Below, one piece after another: positions 21,018 through 30,490 of a stretch of DNA of 64,000 bases. The stretch is from positions 4,704,001 through 4,768,000 of the forward strand of contig OZ242311.1 of NCBI GenBank assembly GCA_965207885.1, in the 5' to 3' direction. This DNA is from Candidatus Latescibacterota bacterium (lineage in GTDB: Bacteria > Latescibacterota > UBA2968). Numbering within the stretch: the stretch's first letter is position 1; every line of letters starts with the position of its first letter. The position numbers and the translations under genes were made by a program. The notes beneath the pieces were generated by a model. The model was not told the origin of the DNA. It ran no database searches and worked only from the letters and a program-made list of their open reading frames with translations.

Positions 21018-21082
21018 TTTGTTTTTTTGACCATTATTATAAGCTACCACTACATCCATAATTGAGAATCGGAGGCACGAAA

Positions 21083-22243
21083 ATGCAGTACAGAGGACGT
21101 TGGGAGAAAATTGAAGACATTGGCGAAGGTGGACAAGGTAAGGTTATCCGTGTCTTAGACAAGCAAAAGGTCCAATTAGATCTTCATGCCTTCACTGAGG
21201 CAATTCAACGCTCTCAGCAGCCGGTGAATCGCGATATAATGGAGGACTGGAAGAAGATACGAAAAGGTATTACCGAAATTGTGCGTGCGGAAAATCCTGT
21301 GAACCACGGCGCGCTCAAAATTCTTCACTCGCCGAATGAAGCTCGGAATTTTGAGGATGCGGAGGAGCGTCTAAAACGCGAGTTAAAGGCTATGCAGCAA
21401 GCCGACCACCAGAATCTGCTAAAGGTTGTGGATTATAACCTTGAGGAGAAGTGGTTCGTCTCGAAATACTATCCAAATGGAACCTTGAAAGACAGATCTA
21501 ATTGGTTCACCGGACAAGTAGAACGCGCTCTAACTGCAATTCGGCCAGTCGTTGCGGGGGTTGCCAGATTGCATAGAAAGGGATTTGTCCATCGTGACAT
21601 CAAGCCAGAGAACATTTTCATAGATGAGCGGGAACAATTGGTACTTGGCGATTTTGGCCTCGTGTTCTTTGAGGATCCAGGACATACGAGAATCAGTGGC
21701 ACCTTCGAAAATGTGGGTAGTACCGACTGGATGCCATTATGGGCTACACGTATGCGTATAGAAAATATAAACCCCAGTTTTGATGTCTTTTCATTGGGTA
21801 AGACCATCTGGTCAATGGTATCGCGCGACCCGATTCTTCTCTTGTGGTATCACCGCAACCCGGAGTTTAATCTTGAGAAAATGTTCCCCGATAGGTCAGA
21901 AATGGCGCTTCTCAATGATTTGCTCGATAAATGCGTTGTCCAATACGAAGAGAACTGCCTCGAAAACACGGGTTTACTACTTAACGAGATTGATAGTCTT
22001 CTCGGTGCCCTGAGACTTGACGCAGATATAATGAGCGATTCTGAACGCCCATGCAGAGTGTGTGGTTTCGGGAAGTATCAACTGAGAGCGAACAGAAACC
22101 ATACTGACATCTACAATTTTGGGTTTGAGCCAAGAGGAGGACATGCGTTCAAGATATTTGCCTGTGATAACTGTGGACACGTTCAACTCTTCTCCTGTCA
22201 ACACGATAGTGATCCTCCGGGATGGATAGGGAGTTCCAATTAG
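21083..22243 (+). CDS. Hanks-type Ser/Thr protein kinase with C-terminal zinc ribbon
   Basis: GEGGQGKV, ALK, HRDIKPEN, DFG, DVFSLG; CRVC...CDNC; GGAGG RBS before ATG 21083. Confidence 0.9.
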   Translation: MQYRGRWEKIEDIGEGGQGKVIRVLDKQKVQLDLHAFTEAIQRSQQPVNRDIMEDWKKIRKGITEIVRAENPVNHGALKILHSPNEARNFEDAEERLKRELKAMQQADHQNLLKVVDYNLEEKWFVSKYYPNGTLKDRSNWFTGQVERALTAIRPVVAGVARLHRKGFVHRDIKPENIFIDEREQLVLGDFGLVFFEDPGHTRISGTFENVGSTDWMPLWATRMRIENINPSFDVFSLGKTIWSMVSRDPILLLWYHRNPEFNLEKMFPDRSEMALLNDLLDKCVVQYEENCLENTGLLLNEIDSLLGALRLDADIMSDSERPCRVCGFGKYQLRANRNHTDIYNFGFEPRGGHAFKIFACDNCGHVQLFSCQHDSDPPGWIGSSN

Positions 22244-22456
22244 TGTTCTACCTGCAGTTTTGGACTCAGTACTTAGCTGTCGAGCATCTCTGGGTAGCGA
22301 TATGATGGGATTGACTATATTATTTAAAAATGTTAGATTTTTGATTCCCAAGTATGCCAATAGCAGAGGCCACGGACATGTCGGACTGACTGTGTGGTAC
22401 TCTGGTACAATAGAATGTGAACAACTTGGGAAGCAATGATAGGAGCAAAGAGGGCA

Positions 22457-22963
22457 ATGACAAGACAACGGGTCTTTTTTAGTTTTCACTATGCACACGA
22501 CAATTGGCGGGCTGCCCAAATTAGAAATGCTGGTGTCGTCGAGGGCAATAAACTCGTCAGCGATAACCAGTGGGAAAGCTATGCCGACACCGCCTCAATC
22601 AAGAAATGGGTAGATAGTCAGCTTACCGAAGCATCCTGTACAATCGTTCTGATTGGAAGTCATACTGCCGAAAGTGACTGGATCCATTATGAAATAATAA
22701 AATCATGGGATGAGGGCAAAGGACTGCTTGGCATCTATGTTCATAATCTTAAGGATCAATACGGGAAACAATCCCTAAAAGGAAAAAACCCTTTTGATAA
22801 CATTAATATCAATGGTCAGATATTGTCAAACGTGGTAAAATCGTACAATCCGCCACATGGCGATAGCAAGGACGCTTACCATTATGTCAAGAGCAAAATC
22901 GCTGGGTGGATAGAGGATGCAATACGCATCCGCAAAAATGTCCAAGGAACAAAAAATGTCTAA
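22457..22963 (+). CDS. TIR domain protein (ThsB/MTH538-like, DUF1863)
   Basis: RVFFSFHY..DNWRA.QIRN.G, SCTIVLIG, W..YEI..SW..GKGLLGI with the catalytic Glu present. Confidence 0.9.
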   Translation: MTRQRVFFSFHYAHDNWRAAQIRNAGVVEGNKLVSDNQWESYADTASIKKWVDSQLTEASCTIVLIGSHTAESDWIHYEIIKSWDEGKGLLGIYVHNLKDQYGKQSLKGKNPFDNININGQILSNVVKSYNPPHGDSKDAYHYVKSKIAGWIEDAIRIRKNVQGTKNV

Positions 22964-23572: not shown

Positions 23573-24418
23573 TCATTGCTGAGCTTCCCACTTTTCCAAA
23601 TATTCATCTAAATGTTTTTCCAAATCCAAACATGCAGTGGGATAATTATCAGTTATACGCTGAGTAGGCCGGCGATTGTGGGCAACGCAATTTCTCATCT
23701 GCTCAATGGGATCCATAAGATTTTTGAGACTGGCAAGAAACTCAGCATCTTCTTCATGCTCAACAGGAACCCGGAGTATTTCGGCACGGAAGGCGTCGTA
23801 TTCTTCTGTATTGTGGATTAACTCCAGTATGTCCGTGGCCGTCAGTTTGGACTTTGGACGCTGGTTCAGATTTATATATTGTTTAAAATTCAAGTGAAAA
23901 AACTGGTTCTCAGTTGCGATTTTCATCTGATCCTGCGTTTGTCTCCCTATAGTTTTGACTGTCTCCTCTCGAAGTAAGTTAAAGGGATCCTTGCCCTGGT
24001 AGGCATTCAGATAGATAATTGATAGGACGCGGCGCAACTTCATCTCCAACGCGAAAATCTCTTTGGCGTAAACAGCGAGTTCGCTTCGAAGCAATGGGTC
24101 CTCGAATTTCACGACGTGGAAGATAGGTGGGGTATCAGGAAGGGATGTGGCGAATTCATCAACGACCTCTCTGATAGACTCTATTTCGTCGGACAGTTCA
24201 AGAGCGAAGCCAATCAGATGATGGTGGGGCGTTATACCACCATCATCTGTAATCTCGCCACCGGAACGCTCGTAGCGAAATTCGATCATGTCGGCTATGG
24301 CGTCTTCATCAAATAAGTTAGAATTATTATACAACGCTTCGCTAAGCAAATTCGTAAGTATTTGTTGGATGTTCGTATCCAGTGCAGGATGGCAGGCGAT
24401 AAGGAATTCAAAGGTCAT
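23573..24418 (-). CDS. HEPN-domain protein (Swt1/ApeA-like putative RNase)
   Basis: LEMKLRR helix and C-terminal RNCVAH (Rx4H); ATG overlaps the S stop (ATGA). Confidence 0.75.
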   Translation of the reverse strand: MTFEFLIACHPALDTNIQQILTNLLSEALYNNSNLFDEDAIADMIEFRYERSGGEITDDGGITPHHHLIGFALELSDEIESIREVVDEFATSLPDTPPIFHVVKFEDPLLRSELAVYAKEIFALEMKLRRVLSIIYLNAYQGKDPFNLLREETVKTIGRQTQDQMKIATENQFFHLNFKQYINLNQRPKSKLTATDILELIHNTEEYDAFRAEILRVPVEHEEDAEFLASLKNLMDPIEQMRNCVAHNRRPTQRITDNYPTACLDLEKHLDEYLEKWEAQQ

Positions 24419-25826
24419 GGTGAAGGAGAGCCTAAGAGTTGCTTCTCGAACCATTGCTTAGCGTCCTGCCAGCCGGATTCGGCTTCGGAACGAAGGCGAC
24501 GGGATTCTTCGCGGCGGTGGCTAACTTCGGCGGTGATCATTGACTGAGTGGAAGCATCCATTTTGGGGAAAGGAATTTTTAAAAGATCATCGCCATCTAA
24601 TCGGAACCGACTGGGTGTTGCGCCTCTACTTAACTGATACATGATTTTACGGTATAGGTCTGTTCGTAGTAACCATAGAATTGCTTCTGGCTGATGCCTT
24701 TGATTGCATCGCAAAACTAAAAACTCCGCTGAGGCAATCATTCTTCTTTCTTGTTTTGGGCAAAGAACAAATTTTGCATTAAGAATGGTAGGACCAAGTC
24801 TCGCAATAAGAATATCATTTTCCTGAACCTCAAAGAACGTCCCAGTAATATTCTTGCCCTTCTCGGTCCTAACAGTTTCGACTTGCCAGGGTTGGTTTGG
24901 TAGATCATCTATTCGTATCAAGTCAAATTGTTCTTCTGGTGAGTCCTTAGCGGGAGAGTATTTCTTTTTTACTAGAGATCCCACTATGCCGACAGTATCT
25001 TCAAATGGAAGACACTTCTCAAGTTGTAGTCCGCGATAACGCTCCGCGTTCATTACATTGGTCAGGTCTTTTGCATGAATTGCAAAGATATTTTTGGGTT
25101 GGGATGGTGGCCTAATGCCAAGGGTTTCCATAACGAAGTCGTCTAGACCTGACAGCAGCGAGTTAGCTTTTTCCAGCTTACCCTTTCGTTCAACTCGTGC
25201 CTCATCCATTACTGCGGCTAGTTCCATTTGGCGAGTTTCTGAAAATTTCGGAAATGGAAGAGTCTCAAGAAAATTAGCTGGAACTCGTTGTTGACCCGCT
25301 GAACCTGTAAAGGCATAAGTCGCAATGCGGCGCAACGTGTCTTGACTAATAAACTCAAAGACGAATTTTGGCAATATACCGGGGGCACGCACTCTAAGAA
25401 CATGGAACTCGGTCGAGCCGAAACCCACACCGTTTGGTAATCCATCTACTATGCACGATTTGCCATTTTGCATACATGGCGTAATCTTTGCCCACAGTAT
25501 ATCCCCATTGATGAAAGGAGAATATCCTTTTCGTACCTCTTTGAGTGGTCTGTTCGCAATCGTATATTGCCCTATGGTGTTGTCTGAAACCGCTTGCATT
25601 GGAATAAAACCAACAAGATCATCAGCGTCCAACCCAGAGACATCTGCTGATGGATTAACATCAACATACATCGATAGCGGATTAATAGCTGTTGGATTAC
25701 TGCCAAGCCTATTCAGAAAGAGTCGAATTTCTGGCGCATAACGTGAGGGACTAAATGAAAGTCCATCCACTTCGCCCCGCTTCACTGCAAAACATTGAGC
25801 CTTGCCAAGTTGGGCGGGGCTTATAC
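24415..25826 (-). CDS. restriction-modification specificity (S) subunit with two TRDs; no convincing own start
   Basis: TRD1 DILWAKITPCMQNGK, FGSTEFHV, GSAGQQRV; TRD2 DILIARLGP, SAEFLV; helical spacers. The 5' end given is the predicted frameshift junction. Confidence 0.85.
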
Positions 25827-25848
25827 GAAAAAAGGTGTGGGATCCTTC
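25774..25848 (-). promoter_or_regulatory. candidate programmed -1 ribosomal frameshift signal
   Basis: Minus strand: GAAGGA, 9 nt, T_TTT_TTC (25833-25827), 6-nt spacer, stem GCCCCGC(25820-14)/GCGGGGC(25780-74). Confidence 0.6.
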
Positions 25849-27833
25849 TGAAATTCCTGCCACTGACCAACGAGACCTGTGCCGGGAATTATTTCTCGGC
25901 GGCGTTCGCTCCAACCAGATTCTTTGGGATTCACTGTGATCCACTCATAAAACACGCGGTAGTCAAATAGATCGCAGCTATGTCGCTCTATCTTCTCCAC
26001 GCCTGCTTTTTCCTTCTCGACGCTCACTGCAAAAGTTTTGCGTCCGGTAGCATCGTAACCGATATTTTCAGCCAATGCCATGAAGATGGGTTTTTCATCG
26101 GGTACATTCTCGCCGTTGTCCAAACGGCGCAGAAAGATAATACTTGTCTTTACCCCTGCGTCGTAGTGCTGAAAGGCGAACTGCGGAAGACTAACTACGG
26201 CCAGAAGTTGGAAGTGTTTCAGTATCCAATGCCGCACACCTTCGAGGGATGAGTTGGTTAGGATACCATCGGGTAACACCACAGCGGCGCGGCCTGTACC
26301 GGGTTTGAGAAAGGCGTGTACCCGTTCCAAGAATAGGATCTCCGTTTTAACGCTGGTGCGTGCTTTCAATGCTTTTGCACCGTTTTTTGCGCTTGTGCCA
26401 TCCCCATTCCTATTCGGGCGACCAGGATAGTTTTTGCTGAGGTATGCCTGCAATTCGAACTGATCCAGATAACCATCTCCTTTTTCAGTGCGTCTGATGA
26501 CAGATCCGAAAGGCGGGTTGGTGAGAATTAGATCAAATTTGCCTTCGTCCAAGCCGAGATTCTTGCCGTGAATCTTGTTGAGAAAATCCAGGGCATCGTG
26601 ACCGACAATGTTGGTGTGACCATCGTCGTGAATAATCATGTTCATCTTTGCAACGCGGGCGAGTTCGTCATTTACCTCAATGCCGAAGAGGTTCTTTTCG
26701 GCGAAGTCATGCCAATATTGAAAATGCTGAATACTCTCTGGAGTAAAACGTTGGTTAGCCTCGCGGCGAACGTGGTCAAGGGCGTAGAGCAGGAAGCCGC
26801 CAGAGCCACAAGCGGGATCGAGAACAAGGTCGTCGCGTTTTGGATCAAACATCTCAACAGCGAAGGCTATTAGTTCGCGGGGTGTGAAGTACTGGCCGAA
26901 GTCACCCTTGAAGAAGCCTCCCATAAACTCCTCGAAAGCCACGCCTTTGGTATCCAGTTCCGTGCGGTCGAGTGAGATGCCCTCCAGATGCTCCACACAC
27001 TGAGCCAAAATAGGCGGGTCAATATTGATGTGATCAGTGAAAACATCAGGTTCGCGTTGTTGTTCAGCGTCGTAGAGCCGGTTAATGCGCTCGGCGAGAT
27101 CAATAGCGGTTTCTCCATCGCTGCGCTGAAAGTCATAGGGTTGACCCTCTTGCCTTTCCAGATTTTTTTCGTCGCGATGTTTGATAAAGACCAGCTTGGA
27201 AAACTCGCCAAATGCGGCGATAGGACTACGGCGTCCACCCTCCCACAGTGTTTGATGGCACTTGCGGATCGCTGCGCGGAGTTCTTCTCGTGGGATCGCG
27301 GCAAGATCGCGGCCCGGCCTGTCCTTCAAGAAACGCCATTTGGGTGGCCTGCCGTAGTTTACCGGAATATCAGTGAGAAGGTTTCGATCCCGCTCTCCGG
27401 GGGGAAATTTGTCGAAGCGCAATAGGCGGCGGGTAAGACCAGCGATGGCACCACAGTATTTTGCTGCCAAACTGGCGCGATAGCCACAGGCTTGTTCGAT
27501 GGATTGGTTGAACTCTGCGTCGGATACGTCTGCACGTTTGCACTCGAAAACGAAATACGGGGACTTGTGTTCGTCGTCTTCATAAATGACGAGGTCTGCA
27601 TAATTACTTGGCGTCCTCCCTGGAACACTGACTTCAAATCCAATTCGATTTGGCGGATATTGATATTTACAAATAAGCTCTGCCCATAGTTCAGCGCGGA
27701 CTTTTTCCTCTGGGTCAGTCCATTGTTCAGAGCGGTTGGCTGCAATGTAGCGAATGCGTTCGGACGTACCCTCGCCAGTAATTTCAGCGTATTTACGGTC
27801 AAAGGCCTGGTCGAGAAAATTTTTATAATTCAT
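25821..27833 (-). CDS. fused restriction endonuclease-N6 adenine methyltransferase (HSDR_N + N6_Mtase; type IIG/IIB-like)
   Basis: PEEKVR, YADLVIY..FECK nuclease motifs; GQYFTPR, DPACGSGGFL, NPPF, VLPDGIL. Confidence 0.92.
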   Translation of the reverse strand: MNYKNFLDQAFDRKYAEITGEGTSERIRYIAANRSEQWTDPEEKVRAELWAELICKYQYPPNRIGFEVSVPGRTPSNYADLVIYEDDEHKSPYFVFECKRADVSDAEFNQSIEQACGYRASLAAKYCGAIAGLTRRLLRFDKFPPGERDRNLLTDIPVNYGRPPKWRFLKDRPGRDLAAIPREELRAAIRKCHQTLWEGGRRSPIAAFGEFSKLVFIKHRDEKNLERQEGQPYDFQRSDGETAIDLAERINRLYDAEQQREPDVFTDHINIDPPILAQCVEHLEGISLDRTELDTKGVAFEEFMGGFFKGDFGQYFTPRELIAFAVEMFDPKRDDLVLDPACGSGGFLLYALDHVRREANQRFTPESIQHFQYWHDFAEKNLFGIEVNDELARVAKMNMIIHDDGHTNIVGHDALDFLNKIHGKNLGLDEGKFDLILTNPPFGSVIRRTEKGDGYLDQFELQAYLSKNYPGRPNRNGDGTSAKNGAKALKARTSVKTEILFLERVHAFLKPGTGRAAVVLPDGILTNSSLEGVRHWILKHFQLLAVVSLPQFAFQHYDAGVKTSIIFLRRLDNGENVPDEKPIFMALAENIGYDATGRKTFAVSVEKEKAGVEKIERHSCDLFDYRVFYEWITVNPKESGWSERRREIIPGTGLVGQWQEFQKDPTPFFV

Positions 27834-28160: not shown

Positions 28161-29669
28161 TTATCTCATTCTCACCTCAGCGACAGGCGTTCCCGCTGCC
28201 CCGTCGAGCATGAGACTGCTCGCTCTGGCAAGGGTGGCTGATATGTTTTCGAGGCTTTGGCCGTCGAAGGATTGACCGCCAATGATTTTGGGGCTGATAA
28301 TGAGTGCCTGGCCAGCAGGTTCATCGAATAGGGCGAATGTCACGCCGCTGCCATAGCGCGCCATAGCGCTCATTGTGTCGTGAAATTGGGAGATGGTTTG
28401 AGTAGAGACATCGCCGACTTTCATTTCGATAAAGACAATATCGGGAAGTGCGGCATCCATGGCTTTTTGCGCGACCTCGATGATGAATGTGCTACCGAGT
28501 TTGCGGCTTTCTTCGCTGTCCATCAATACGCCGGATACCAGCCGACCAAATGCCTCATCTTTGATGATTTTTTTGAGTTTGAGAGCTTCCGGGGTCAGCT
28601 TGGGTTTGACTATGCGGTCGATATATCGCTGCGATTTGCCCTGTTTTATGGCTGTGCCGAGTTGTTCTTCTATGGTGCCTGCGATTTTTTCGAGGCTGGG
28701 TGCGTTGACGGCAGAAGGGCTGTATCTGGTACCATAGCCCTTGGTTTTGCTAACTATGGGGGGGATTTCTTTTTCCCCAGATTGATAGAAAGCCAGTGTG
28801 CGCGTATGGGTTTTGTCCTCGACGGCTTTGTTGTGATATTCAAATAGCGAAGGGATTTTGAGATTTTTGCCTTTGATTGCATTGGGTGAAGCCGTTTGAA
28901 CGGTGGTCATCCAATCGCGCGATTTTTTGCCGTAGTCGATATTGTTAAATAATGCCCCTCTGTACGTCAGATAGGCGGGGATATTCGATCCCGACCCCGA
29001 TCCGGTGACCGCAATGATGACCACGCCTTTGGGCAAGCCCTGGTCTGGTAGGACAAAAGATTCGAAAGCGTGTTCGATCATGGCGTATTGAGCAGGTGTA
29101 AAGTCGGTGATATTCAGACTGGGACCTCCGCGTCCACCTCCACCTCCACCGCCGCGTGCTCCTTGTCCTCGTCGGCCCCCCTGTCCACCGCCGCGCACTC
29201 CTTGTCCCTGGCGCTCCTGTCCACCACCGCGTGCTCCTTGCCCTTGCCCCCGACGTCCCTGTCTGCCGCCCTGCAGTGCCTGAAATTCGCGCAAGATATT
29301 GCCGAATACCGCGTTAAATTCCTGGCGATCGGTGTTGAGGATTTTGCGAAAAAAGAGTTCGAGTTGCTGGTGGCGAACGGGAAACAGATCGTCCCATTTT
29401 TTAGCCTGATCGAGTATGTACATCTGTATGGGGGCTGGCATTTGGTTGAGAATCTGCGCGTTGGCTTCGAGGAGTTTTTGGGCATCCCAGGGGTATTCGG
29501 CAAATTGTCTGCGTTGCTGGGGGCTCAAATCTGCGCGTCCACCACCGCCGCCGCCGCGTCCACCACCGCCACGTCCACCCCCTCCGCGCTGTGCGTAAAT
29601 ATCTGACAGGTCCAAGGCGCATAGTGCCGCGCCCATCAGTAAGATCGATATCCATCTTGAAGGTCGCAT
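28161..29669 (-). CDS. secreted protein with Gly/Arg-rich tracts and degenerate alkaline-phosphatase-like C-terminal domain
   Basis: GGGAGG RBS, signal peptide, two RGG-rich tracts; C-terminal half follows the AlkP-superfamily motif order without the ligands. Confidence 0.65.
   Translation of the reverse strand: MRPSRWISILLMGAALCALDLSDIYAQRGGGGRGGGGRGGGGGGRADLSPQQRRQFAEYPWDAQKLLEANAQILNQMPAPIQMYILDQAKKWDDLFPVRHQQLELFFRKILNTDRQEFNAVFGNILREFQALQGGRQGRRGQGQGARGGGQERQGQGVRGGGQGGRRGQGARGGGGGGGRGGPSLNITDFTPAQYAMIEHAFESFVLPDQGLPKGVVIIAVTGSGSGSNIPAYLTYRGALFNNIDYGKKSRDWMTTVQTASPNAIKGKNLKIPSLFEYHNKAVEDKTHTRTLAFYQSGEKEIPPIVSKTKGYGTRYSPSAVNAPSLEKIAGTIEEQLGTAIKQGKSQRYIDRIVKPKLTPEALKLKKIIKDEAFGRLVSGVLMDSEESRKLGSTFIIEVAQKAMDAALPDIVFIEMKVGDVSTQTISQFHDTMSAMARYGSGVTFALFDEPAGQALIISPKIIGGQSFDGQSLENISATLARASSLMLDGAAGTPVAEVRMR
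29145..29243. repeat. three imperfect 36-39 nt coding repeats (GQG[A/V]RGGG)
   Basis: TCCACC(G/A)CCGCG..CTCCTTG(T/C)CC at 29145, 29184 and 29220. Confidence 0.8.
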
Positions 29670-29713
29670 GGTTGCCTCCCGTGTGAAGAGATGACGCGTT
29701 TTCATACATCGTT

Positions 29714-30490
29714 TCAAAGATTTTTGTCGAGCCAGTCCAGGGCGGTTGTCCACGCGTTGCCCTGGGCGAGCAAGTCGAGTCCATGTCCCGTTCCCTGATA
29801 GCCGATTACGGCAGTAACCCCCCGGGTCAATTCAGACATGTTTTGGGATGAGGTGTAGGCATATCCATCGCCAAAAGCTGCGAGATAGAGAATGTTGCGG
29901 GGTGCAAAACCGGGAATATTGGTGCCGATGAGAATTTCCTGAGCCTGATTTTCGCGAAAGCTGGGCGAAACGGATACGGTTGCTTTGATATCGGGATACA
30001 GACCCGCGCTTACAAAGGCGATGTTGGCACCGATGTCTGTACCGATGACACCGATGCGGTTGGGGTCGGCTTCTGTGCGGGTTTTGAGAAATGCAATTGC
30101 AGCGACGACATCGAGCGGCATCTGGTTGAAGTCTTCAATGGAAAAGTTCTGGATTGTGTACGGTTGCCCATTGCGAAAGATGCTGTTGCCATGCCCGCGC
30201 AGATCAAAGGCGAGTGCCAAATATCCTCGCTCGGCAACGAGTTCGGGAACAAAGTCCGCCCACTGAATGTGGTTTTCGTTAAATGGGTGGAGCAGGATGA
30301 CTGCAGGGCGAGGGGCGGGGTGATTGGGCGAAGAAAAGAGTGTGCCAAATAACAGAAAGCCGTCTGGCGTTTGAAATTGTACGGGTTCCAGGCGCGCGTG
30401 CTGGGCGGTGAGTTCAGGTTCGGTAGGCGTCGGCGCAGTAGTGCCGCCGCATCCGATTAAAAATATCGCGATCCACAGGTATTGGCGCAT
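29714..30490 (-). CDS. alpha/beta hydrolase lipoprotein with Asp at the nucleophile elbow
   Basis: Lipobox LIGC, PAVILLH, FDLRGHG.S, RIGVIGTDIGA, GTGHG. Confidence 0.85.
   Translation of the reverse strand: MRQYLWIAIFLIGCGGTTAPTPTEPELTAQHARLEPVQFQTPDGFLLFGTLFSSPNHPAPRPAVILLHPFNENHIQWADFVPELVAERGYLALAFDLRGHGNSIFRNGQPYTIQNFSIEDFNQMPLDVVAAIAFLKTRTEADPNRIGVIGTDIGANIAFVSAGLYPDIKATVSVSPSFRENQAQEILIGTNIPGFAPRNILYLAAFGDGYAYTSSQNMSELTRGVTAVIGYQGTGHGLDLLAQGNAWTTALDWLDKNL

Follow-up and report, generated by a model that had tools for sequence, protein, structure and literature searches.

How is the specificity (S) subunit of a restriction-modification (R-M) enzyme translated when its reading frame overlaps the end of the preceding gene in the -1 frame and has no start codon that is conserved among relatives? 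This question is raised by a minus-strand locus of a Candidatus Latescibacterota bacterium (GenBank assembly GCA_965207885.1, contig OZ242311.1), which lies in an analysed stretch of 64,000 nucleotides (positions 4,704,001 to 4,768,000 of the contig; hereafter the window, whose own numbering is used below). The upstream gene, RM, encodes a nuclease and a methyltransferase in one chain and ends in a slippery heptamer, a stop codon and a GC-rich hairpin, together called the cassette here. A first-pass annotation had proposed programmed -1 ribosomal frameshifting at this site. Comparative sequence evidence from 81 loci indicates that such a frameshift most probably operates, making both RM (670 aa) and a trans-frame RM-S fusion (1139 aa).

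The junction of RM and S

The elements of the junction, in the order in which a ribosome would meet them, are the following.

27833..25821, minus strand: RM gene (0 frame), an open reading frame (ORF) of 670 aa with an HSDR_N_2 nuclease-type domain and an N6-adenine methyltransferase
25848..25843, minus strand: Shine-Dalgarno (SD)-like GAAGGA, 9 nt 5' of the heptamer, a doubtful stimulator
25833..25827, minus strand: slippery heptamer T_TTT_TTC in the X_XXY_YYZ phase of the RM frame, with the run of six T (T6) at 25833..25828
25826..25821, minus strand: spacer GTATAA of 6 nt, which holds the RM stop (25823..25821)
25820..25774, minus strand: hairpin predicted by RNAfold, with the outer stem GCCCCGC/GCGGGGC, internal loops and an inner stem of 7 bp, beginning 6 nt past the heptamer
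24415..25833, minus strand: S reading frame, exactly -1 relative to RM, 472 codons from the heptamer, with two target recognition domains (TRDs)

RM matched PF13588 (HSDR_N_2, N-terminal; E 9.2e-11) and PF02384 (N6_Mtase; E 4e-35), and its 3' end reads CCT TTT TTC GTA TAA on the minus strand. The S frame is open from 25944 to 24415 and matched the PADLOC profile Specificity_I (E 4.2e-53). Past a -1 slip, the codons read in this frame are R-I-S-P-A-Q, and the predicted trans-frame product has 669 + 470 = 1139 aa. The RM end, the in-phase heptamer, the exact -1 relation of S and both product sizes given in the first-pass annotation were confirmed at these coordinates. In its AlphaFold model (pLDDT 84.4, pTM 0.82), S is composed of two TRD blocks and long helices at residues 199-237 and 427-467. 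Residues 3-12 past the slip site are modelled as disordered (pLDDT <50), as expected for a tether. Conservation extends to the -1-frame peptide past the site (FFR.SPA......CFAV.RG....R.D), a sequence that repeats how the second TRD begins, in agreement with the internal repeat noticed earlier around CFAV.

In the proposed mechanism, ribosomes on the RM mRNA would reach U_UUU_UUC and be paused by the stable hairpin 6 nt downstream. A fraction would slip back by one base, the Phe tRNAs in the P and A sites re-pairing with UUU UUU, and would continue in the -1 frame through S to give the 1139-aa RM-S, while unslipped ribosomes would terminate after a single further codon, giving the 670-aa RM. 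One RM-S and one free RM could then assemble into the equivalent of the (RM)2S enzyme of BsaXI, the ratio of RM to RM-S being fixed by the efficiency of frameshifting. This assembly and the stoichiometry set by recoding are suggested by homology to BsaXI and by an engineered EcoKI M-S fusion, both discussed below.

In a database search, the RM protein had 7796 relatives at E <= 0.001 among 8000 scored candidates. Junctions were compared in 81 loci, namely the window and the best 80 of 395 stretches carrying RM relatives (one genome per species was scanned); the RM 3' ends were placed by tblastn and the junctions were then measured. These loci were 61-80% identical to the window in RM and 23-53% in S, and belonged to at least a dozen phylum-level groups. 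They were found in Dehalococcoidia and other Chloroflexota, Latescibacterota, Acidobacteriota, Binatia, Gemmatimonas, Bacillota, Cyanobacteria (Microcystis, Chlorogloea, Dolichospermum and Phormidesmis), Alpha-, Beta- and Gammaproteobacteria, Desulfobulbia, Syntrophus, Verrucomicrobiota, Armatimonadales, Bifidobacteriaceae and Ignavibacteria-type groups.

Among the 120 best RM homologs (73-93% identical), 114 end in F-F/L plus at most one residue (FFV 64, FFA 32, FLV 9, FLA 5, FF 2, FFG 1 and FFM 1). The other six comprise four in-frame fusions to a single-TRD S (903-917 aa), one protein of 775 aa that is cut inside S and one truncated sequence. Since the 114 are RM-only proteins that stop at the cassette, the S gene of such loci has probably been annotated from an arbitrary downstream start or overlooked. 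A plasmid collection returned 28 records, all below 60% identity (highest 42.4% among the 25 listed); the close family was absent from it, and so it held no annotated example.

An in-phase heptamer was present at the same codon in 78 of the 81 loci, and S lies in the -1 frame in all 78, to which the counts below refer unless another number is given. The heptamer reads TTTTTTC in 67 loci, TTTTTTA in 8 and TTTTTTT in 3, and nine more loci, viral or metagenomic, whose sequence extends far enough also have it in phase. The codon preceding TTT has T as its third base without exception (CCT 66, CTT 4, CGT 3, TCT 3, AGT 1 and GAT 1), while its amino acid varies among P, L, R, S and D. Elsewhere in the same RM genes, CCT accounts for 14.8% of Pro codons, T for 17.5% of third positions and TTT for 36% of Phe codons. 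Where Phe is replaced by Leu, the site reads TTT TTA, and the heptamer is still slippery. Because the wobble T is kept while the amino acid changes and the Leu variants use the slippery TTA, the codon pattern indicates that the slip site is selected as nucleotides rather than as protein.

The 0-frame stop (TAA 44, TAG 24, TGA 10) lies 3 nt past the heptamer in 76 loci and 0 nt past it in the other 2. In the junction alignment, columns T13-T18 are invariant in 77 of 77 rows, and only 36 runs of six or more T occur elsewhere in the 248,864 nt of RM and S coding sequence of these loci. The run is exactly T6 in 75 loci, and the frame relation is kept in the other three (T8 in L014 and L078, T7 in L073); T7 also occurs in the metagenome locus L089. 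In addition, contigs of four public runs from four studies, one of which may be the source of the window, span the T run without an indel, evidence of a kind that cannot reveal rare variants. An earlier worry that the window's T6 might really be T7, through a plain fusion or an assembly error, was thus not borne out in the relatives or in these contigs.

RNAfold placed a hairpin where the first-pass annotation had noted a stem-loop. Its minimum free energy (MFE) was -26.2 in a 62-nt window with a z score of -4.24, the lowest of 97 windows in the locus. Across 77 loci, the 62 nt past the heptamer had a mean MFE of -28.7 and a median z of -3.25 relative to about 97 windows of the same locus; z was below -2 in 63 of them, and the segment was the most stable window of its own locus in 51. 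The main stem begins 6 nt past the heptamer across the family, and the outer helix is 83.7% paired in the alignment. The covariation score was 0.190, compared with 0.146 +/- 0.007 for shuffled alignments (reached by 0 of 500); the rows are phylogenetically related, and this control does not amount to a probability. Slid registers gave 0.07-0.12, and over these the structure is favoured since it was chosen by hand; RNAalifold on the raw alignment called four pairs. The compensatory stem types were GCCCCG/CGGGGC (41 rows), CCCCCG/CGGGGG (5, with three more rows carrying the 5-bp form CCCCC/GGGGG), GCCCUG/CAGGGC (4), GCCCGG/CCGGGC (3) and GCCCUC/GAGGGC (1). In about ten loci with a decayed distal 3' arm, the same 5' arm is paired instead with a CGGGGC-type segment close by.

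In a metagenome set on a distant subfamily, z was below -2 in 5 of 6 loci with the cassette and in 0 of 28 relatives lacking the heptamer (median z +0.61 at the stop), so the heptamer and the hairpin travel together. The comparison of homologous loci proposed with the first-pass annotation was positive for the heptamer, the -1 phase and compensatory changes in the stem. Together, the loci display the features of a -1 frameshift site: an in-phase heptamer, a structured RNA with covariation at 6 nt, and a conserved -1 ORF without a conserved start.

The picture was less clear for the SD-like GAAGGA, which is present 9 nt upstream as the first-pass annotation had stated. The median anti-SD duplex energy across the loci was -4.05 compared with -2.1 in the background, where 21% of windows were as good, and strong SD-like sites occurred in 5% of loci versus 8% in the background. 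For Arg at the codon four before the Pro of the heptamer, the favourite codon CGC was used in 3 of about 39 cases, compared with 50% gene-wide. CGG, AGG, CGA and AGA were preferred there, and the result is a GGA-type segment, rich in purines, some 9 nt upstream of the heptamer. This skew is a faint hint of an SD-like stimulator, a role that the comparison leaves doubtful.

Start codons, fusions and rival explanations

No start position of S is common to all 78 loci. In 11 of them, no ATG, GTG or TTG occurs between the nearest upstream -1-frame stop and +66, and in 21 there is none up to +21. L038 and L053 have a -1-frame stop two codons ahead of the heptamer, which leaves about five codons in which a ribosome could enter the S frame. 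In the window, candidate starts of the S frame are GTG at +48 (inside CFAV), +63, -30 and -111 and TTG at -81, and the description of a single nearby GTG in the first-pass annotation has to be corrected. The candidate at -30 arises from RM codons for Q-W, and an SD-like sequence is mostly missing before the candidates. The earlier statement was that S has no ATG with a ribosome-binding site nearby; across the loci a conserved start is lacking, and initiation at the -30 or +48 candidates is possible in some of them. By contrast with the cassette loci, in relatives without the cassette (44-48% identical) S begins at an ATG of its own, 3-13 residues ahead of the conserved peptide motif described above, as read by eye. 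This ATG overlaps the RM stop in L088, L092 and L111 (ATGA) and in L085, and lies just past the stop in L096.

Three of the 81 loci (L001, L013 and L061) are in-frame RM-S fusions with one TRD each. Their junctions, viewed from about 60 nt before to 120 nt past the match ends (5007, 4998 and 5022, respectively), can be recognised as the cassette, altered by a net -2 or +1 nt and with its T run broken or its stop lost. The joint is nearly that of the predicted trans-frame product. Because such natural in-frame fusions exist with nearly the same joint, an RM-S fusion appears to be viable, and these junctions point to evolutionary traffic between the frameshift and fused states. In 57 loci, a conserved and unbroken S frame runs for 450-505 codons, and the cultured Chlorogloea sp. 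CCALA 695 (L034) combines the cassette with a complete S frame of 464 codons. The S frame ends early (163-437 codons), with the conserved C-terminal motif missing, in L003, L004, L018, L020, L036, L040, L052, L053, L054, L057 and L065, which are probably disrupted genes or long-read indel errors. A rule that in-frame fusions carry one TRD and frameshift loci two fits the three fusions and the 57 complete S frames, but it was abandoned since L027 and the long fusions of distant relatives break it.

Several observations weigh against programmed frameshifting. GTG or ATG occurs at -30 in 52 of the 78 loci and at +48 in 24, and independent initiation there is possible. The two hairpin arms also code for S residues that are conserved (S-P-A and K/R-R-G), so part of the nucleotide conservation is at the protein level. 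The excess of covariation over the shuffled value is moderate, the SD-like element is not clearly conserved, and the disordered stretch past the site fits a linker but equally a non-essential leader. Other observations complicate the idea of a fixed stoichiometry: about 11 of the 78 S frames look disrupted, L027 pairs the cassette with a single-TRD S, and distant relatives include in-frame fusions of 1040-1186 aa, which have room for a full S.

The candidates at -30 and +48 would suit a free S that arises by independent initiation, or by termination-reinitiation near the RM stop, with the hairpin tuning the coupling or mRNA stability. The ATGA overlaps and stop-adjacent ATG codons of more distant relatives would also suit it, and translational coupling of M and S is described as the norm for EcoKI in PMC3510504. 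Against this stand the 11 loci with no canonical start up to +66, the absence of a common position, the mostly missing SD and the location of the +48 codon within the hairpin. Independent initiation would also leave unexplained the invariant wobble T, the TTT TTA variants, the fixed 6-nt spacing and why relatives with their own ATG have neither heptamer nor hairpin, and we consider it quite unlikely. Decidedly unlikely, in our judgement, is transcriptional slippage, in which RNA polymerase would add one U at T6 so that some mRNAs encode RM-S directly. It would likewise need a conserved homopolymer and give the same fusion, and the T7 and T8 runs of L073, L089, L014 and L078 are in its favour. 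Efficient transcriptional slippage, however, needs runs of about 8-9, longer than the T6 kept in 75 of 78 loci. Moreover, the TTT TTA variants retain the X_XXY_YYZ form, and a hairpin 6 nt downstream that occurs only with the heptamer is a hallmark of ribosomal -1 shifting with no obvious role for a polymerase.

The separation of S from RM could also arise at the DNA level, from a phase-variable T6/T7 switch, from a recent mutation that shifted the frame of a fused RMS gene and left a pseudogene, or from an error in the assembly of such a gene. In-frame fusions do exist in 3 of the 81 loci, L013 has T7 in frame, and homopolymers are error-prone in long-read assemblies. Nevertheless, the combination of T6 with a -1 S frame is found again and again across many phyla and kinds of assembly, the contigs of the four studies lack an indel, and S is intact over its full length in 57 loci. 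A six-base run is also short for a switch, whose tract would vary in length and toggle the frame; here the frame is kept even in the three loci with longer runs. An origin at the DNA level therefore seems extremely unlikely. The remaining explanation takes the junction and the conserved 3' end of S mainly as homology anchors for swapping S cassettes, the hairpin being incidental. It would agree with the much lower identity of S than of RM, with the conserved blocks that flank the variable TRDs and with the occurrence of the same junction on RM backbones only about 45-52% identical. Recombination, though, needs identity and not pairing, and the compensatory changes, the alternative 3' partners and the wobble-T rule would go unexplained. 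As a replacement for programmed frameshifting the anchor explanation is very unlikely; as a role alongside frameshifting it could coexist with it.

Spread of the cassette and neighbouring genes

The wider family, judged from these comparisons, uses three solutions for S: its own ATG, an in-frame fusion or the frameshift cassette. Two viral contigs (L082 and L083), with RM 50-52% identical and a shorter C-terminal part, keep the heptamer, spacer, stop and a CCCCCG/CGGGGG hairpin. The metagenome locus L089, of a 750-aa subfamily, has T_TTT_TTT and the stem GCCCCAAUUU/AAAUUGGGGC, and further metagenome loci with the cassette are L098, L100, L101, L103, L107 and L114. Among 150 representatives of clusters at 50% identity, 11 end in FF plus one residue, and many others are 800-1190 aa long, the size of a fusion. 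The clade comprises thousands of database proteins, with the cassette on RM backbones down to about 45% identity. Tentatively, and with slightly less than even confidence, we propose that a widespread Type IIB-like clade gave up the S start and that an ancient cassette (U_UUU_UUY, stop, GC hairpin) gives a fixed RM/RM-S ratio and an asymmetric (RM)(RM-S) enzyme, which would be the first case of stoichiometry set by recoding in prokaryotic defence.

The genome of the window also has an RM paralogue (L168, G000:C1:4557760-4559529), which is 34% identical, has an open frame of 707 codons and lacks the cassette. It is followed by an overlapping frame of 240 codons, which has an internal Met close to its beginning and resembles an independently started S with a single TRD.

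T_TTT_TTC followed by one codon, a stop and a GC hairpin at 6 nt also occurs where portal genes of the Mu type end (PF06074, E 1e-62 to 1e-78). These junctions occur in viral contigs of three phage lineages (L171, L174, L176 and L177; L172 and L179; L173), and their -1 frame runs for 288-550 codons into Phage_Mu_F-like proteins, some with CdiA_C or Gln_amidase toxin-like C-termini. Chance alone would be expected to give about as many matches to the bare pattern, but not long ORFs in both frames. A portal-MuF frameshift fusion in the three lineages is possible on this sequence evidence, and the shared layout hints at a reusable bacterial frameshift module.

The operon continues past S with a third gene.

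23573..24418, minus strand: third operon gene, 281 aa, start deduced, its ATG overlapping the S stop as ATGA

This gene was detected 3' of S by tblastn in 28 of 80 loci and may be a further component of the system. Its match to PF07751 (Abi_2) is weak (E 0.015) and under the cut-off; near its C-terminus is an R-N-x-x-A-H motif reminiscent of HEPN domains. Just downstream of the operon, on the plus strand, are a Ser/Thr protein kinase-like ORF (21062..22243; PF00069, E 5.6e-27) and a ThsB-type TIR ORF (22436..22963; PF08937, E 2.5e-23), and these neighbours suggest a defence island. On the 5' side of RM, a minus-strand ORF of 530 aa (28161..29753) contains long Gly/Arg-rich repeats, with G runs broken by R or Q; it had no Pfam or PADLOC match and stood beside RM in 0 of 80 loci.

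Relation to known systems

By domain matches and models, the locus is most like a Type IIB (BsaXI-like) R-M enzyme. Its domain matches place a nuclease and a gamma-type N6-adenine methyltransferase in one RM chain, and its HsdS-like module has two TRDs and two conserved helices. Among solved structures, RM comes closest to RM.BsaXI (8w0p_A, E 1.8e-35, residues 13-571). A Foldseek comparison of the S model ranked the S chain of BsaXI first (8w0p_C, E 4e-16), with PacII S and chains of Type I HsdS next. Two other assignments were rejected. A Type I R-M system did not fit, since no helicase or ResIII domain was found in the seven neighbouring ORFs scanned and the nuclease-type domain sits in the RM chain. 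MADS did not fit either: MAD2 and MAD5 were the best NCBIfam names for RM and S but scored far under their cut-offs (301.2 vs 720 and 34.4 vs 400, respectively).

PMC11997821 describes BsaXI as an (RM)2S heterotrimer and, among 16 modelled Type IIB enzymes, counts eight with RM + S and the rest as single-chain RMS. BsaXI and BcgI thus share with our locus the RM nuclease-methyltransferase chain and the two-TRD S. The described Type IIB enzymes, however, have either a separate S product or a full fusion, whereas here a start-less S in the -1 frame would be reached through a recoding cassette. A close functional parallel is the engineered EcoKI "Type IMS" fusion (Roberts et al. 2012, PMC3510504). 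According to that paper, the M-S fusion was active in vivo and needed extra free M in vitro, that is, the pairing of a fusion with a free catalytic subunit that a frameshift would supply. It differs from our locus in being man-made, by removal of a 1-nt gene overlap, in that its M has no nuclease domain and needs HsdR, and in involving no recoding.

A full-text literature search, with supplements and most subscription journals outside it, returned no account of an R-M system with programmed frameshifting. None was described in the available parts of the recoding review PMC5009743, PMC3711429 and the preprint 10.1101/2021.04.16.440249, and PMC3850674, as far as its available text goes, considered frameshifting in a C-REase fusion and did not find it. 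The junction would thus be a known mechanism in a new setting, its absence from print being not proven. If the proposal is right, R-M systems would be among the few cellular gene families in which programmed frameshifting is conserved, and the locus would be nature's equivalent of the engineered EcoKI M-S fusion. The proposal also bears on how asymmetric (RM)2S enzymes obtain their subunit ratio, and the cassette, compact (about 60 nt) and strongly conserved, could serve as a model bacterial U_UUU_UUC frameshift signal.

Among known frameshift systems, the -1 shift of Escherichia coli dnaX likewise relies on a heptamer and a hairpin, and yields two products in a set ratio that both enter the same complex. 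In dnaX the heptamer is A_AAA_AAG, an upstream SD is a proven stimulator, and the shifted ribosome soon stops and releases the shorter product, whereas here the shift would yield the longer product and the SD is doubtful. In OrfA/OrfAB of the IS3 family and the tail chaperones G/GT of phages, ribosomes shift by -1 close to the 3' end of the upstream ORF, and a start-less downstream ORF is thereby fused to it. This fusion layout, conserved in many relatives, is the same as that proposed for RM and S, but it serves other genes and functions, none of them a defence or R-M enzyme.

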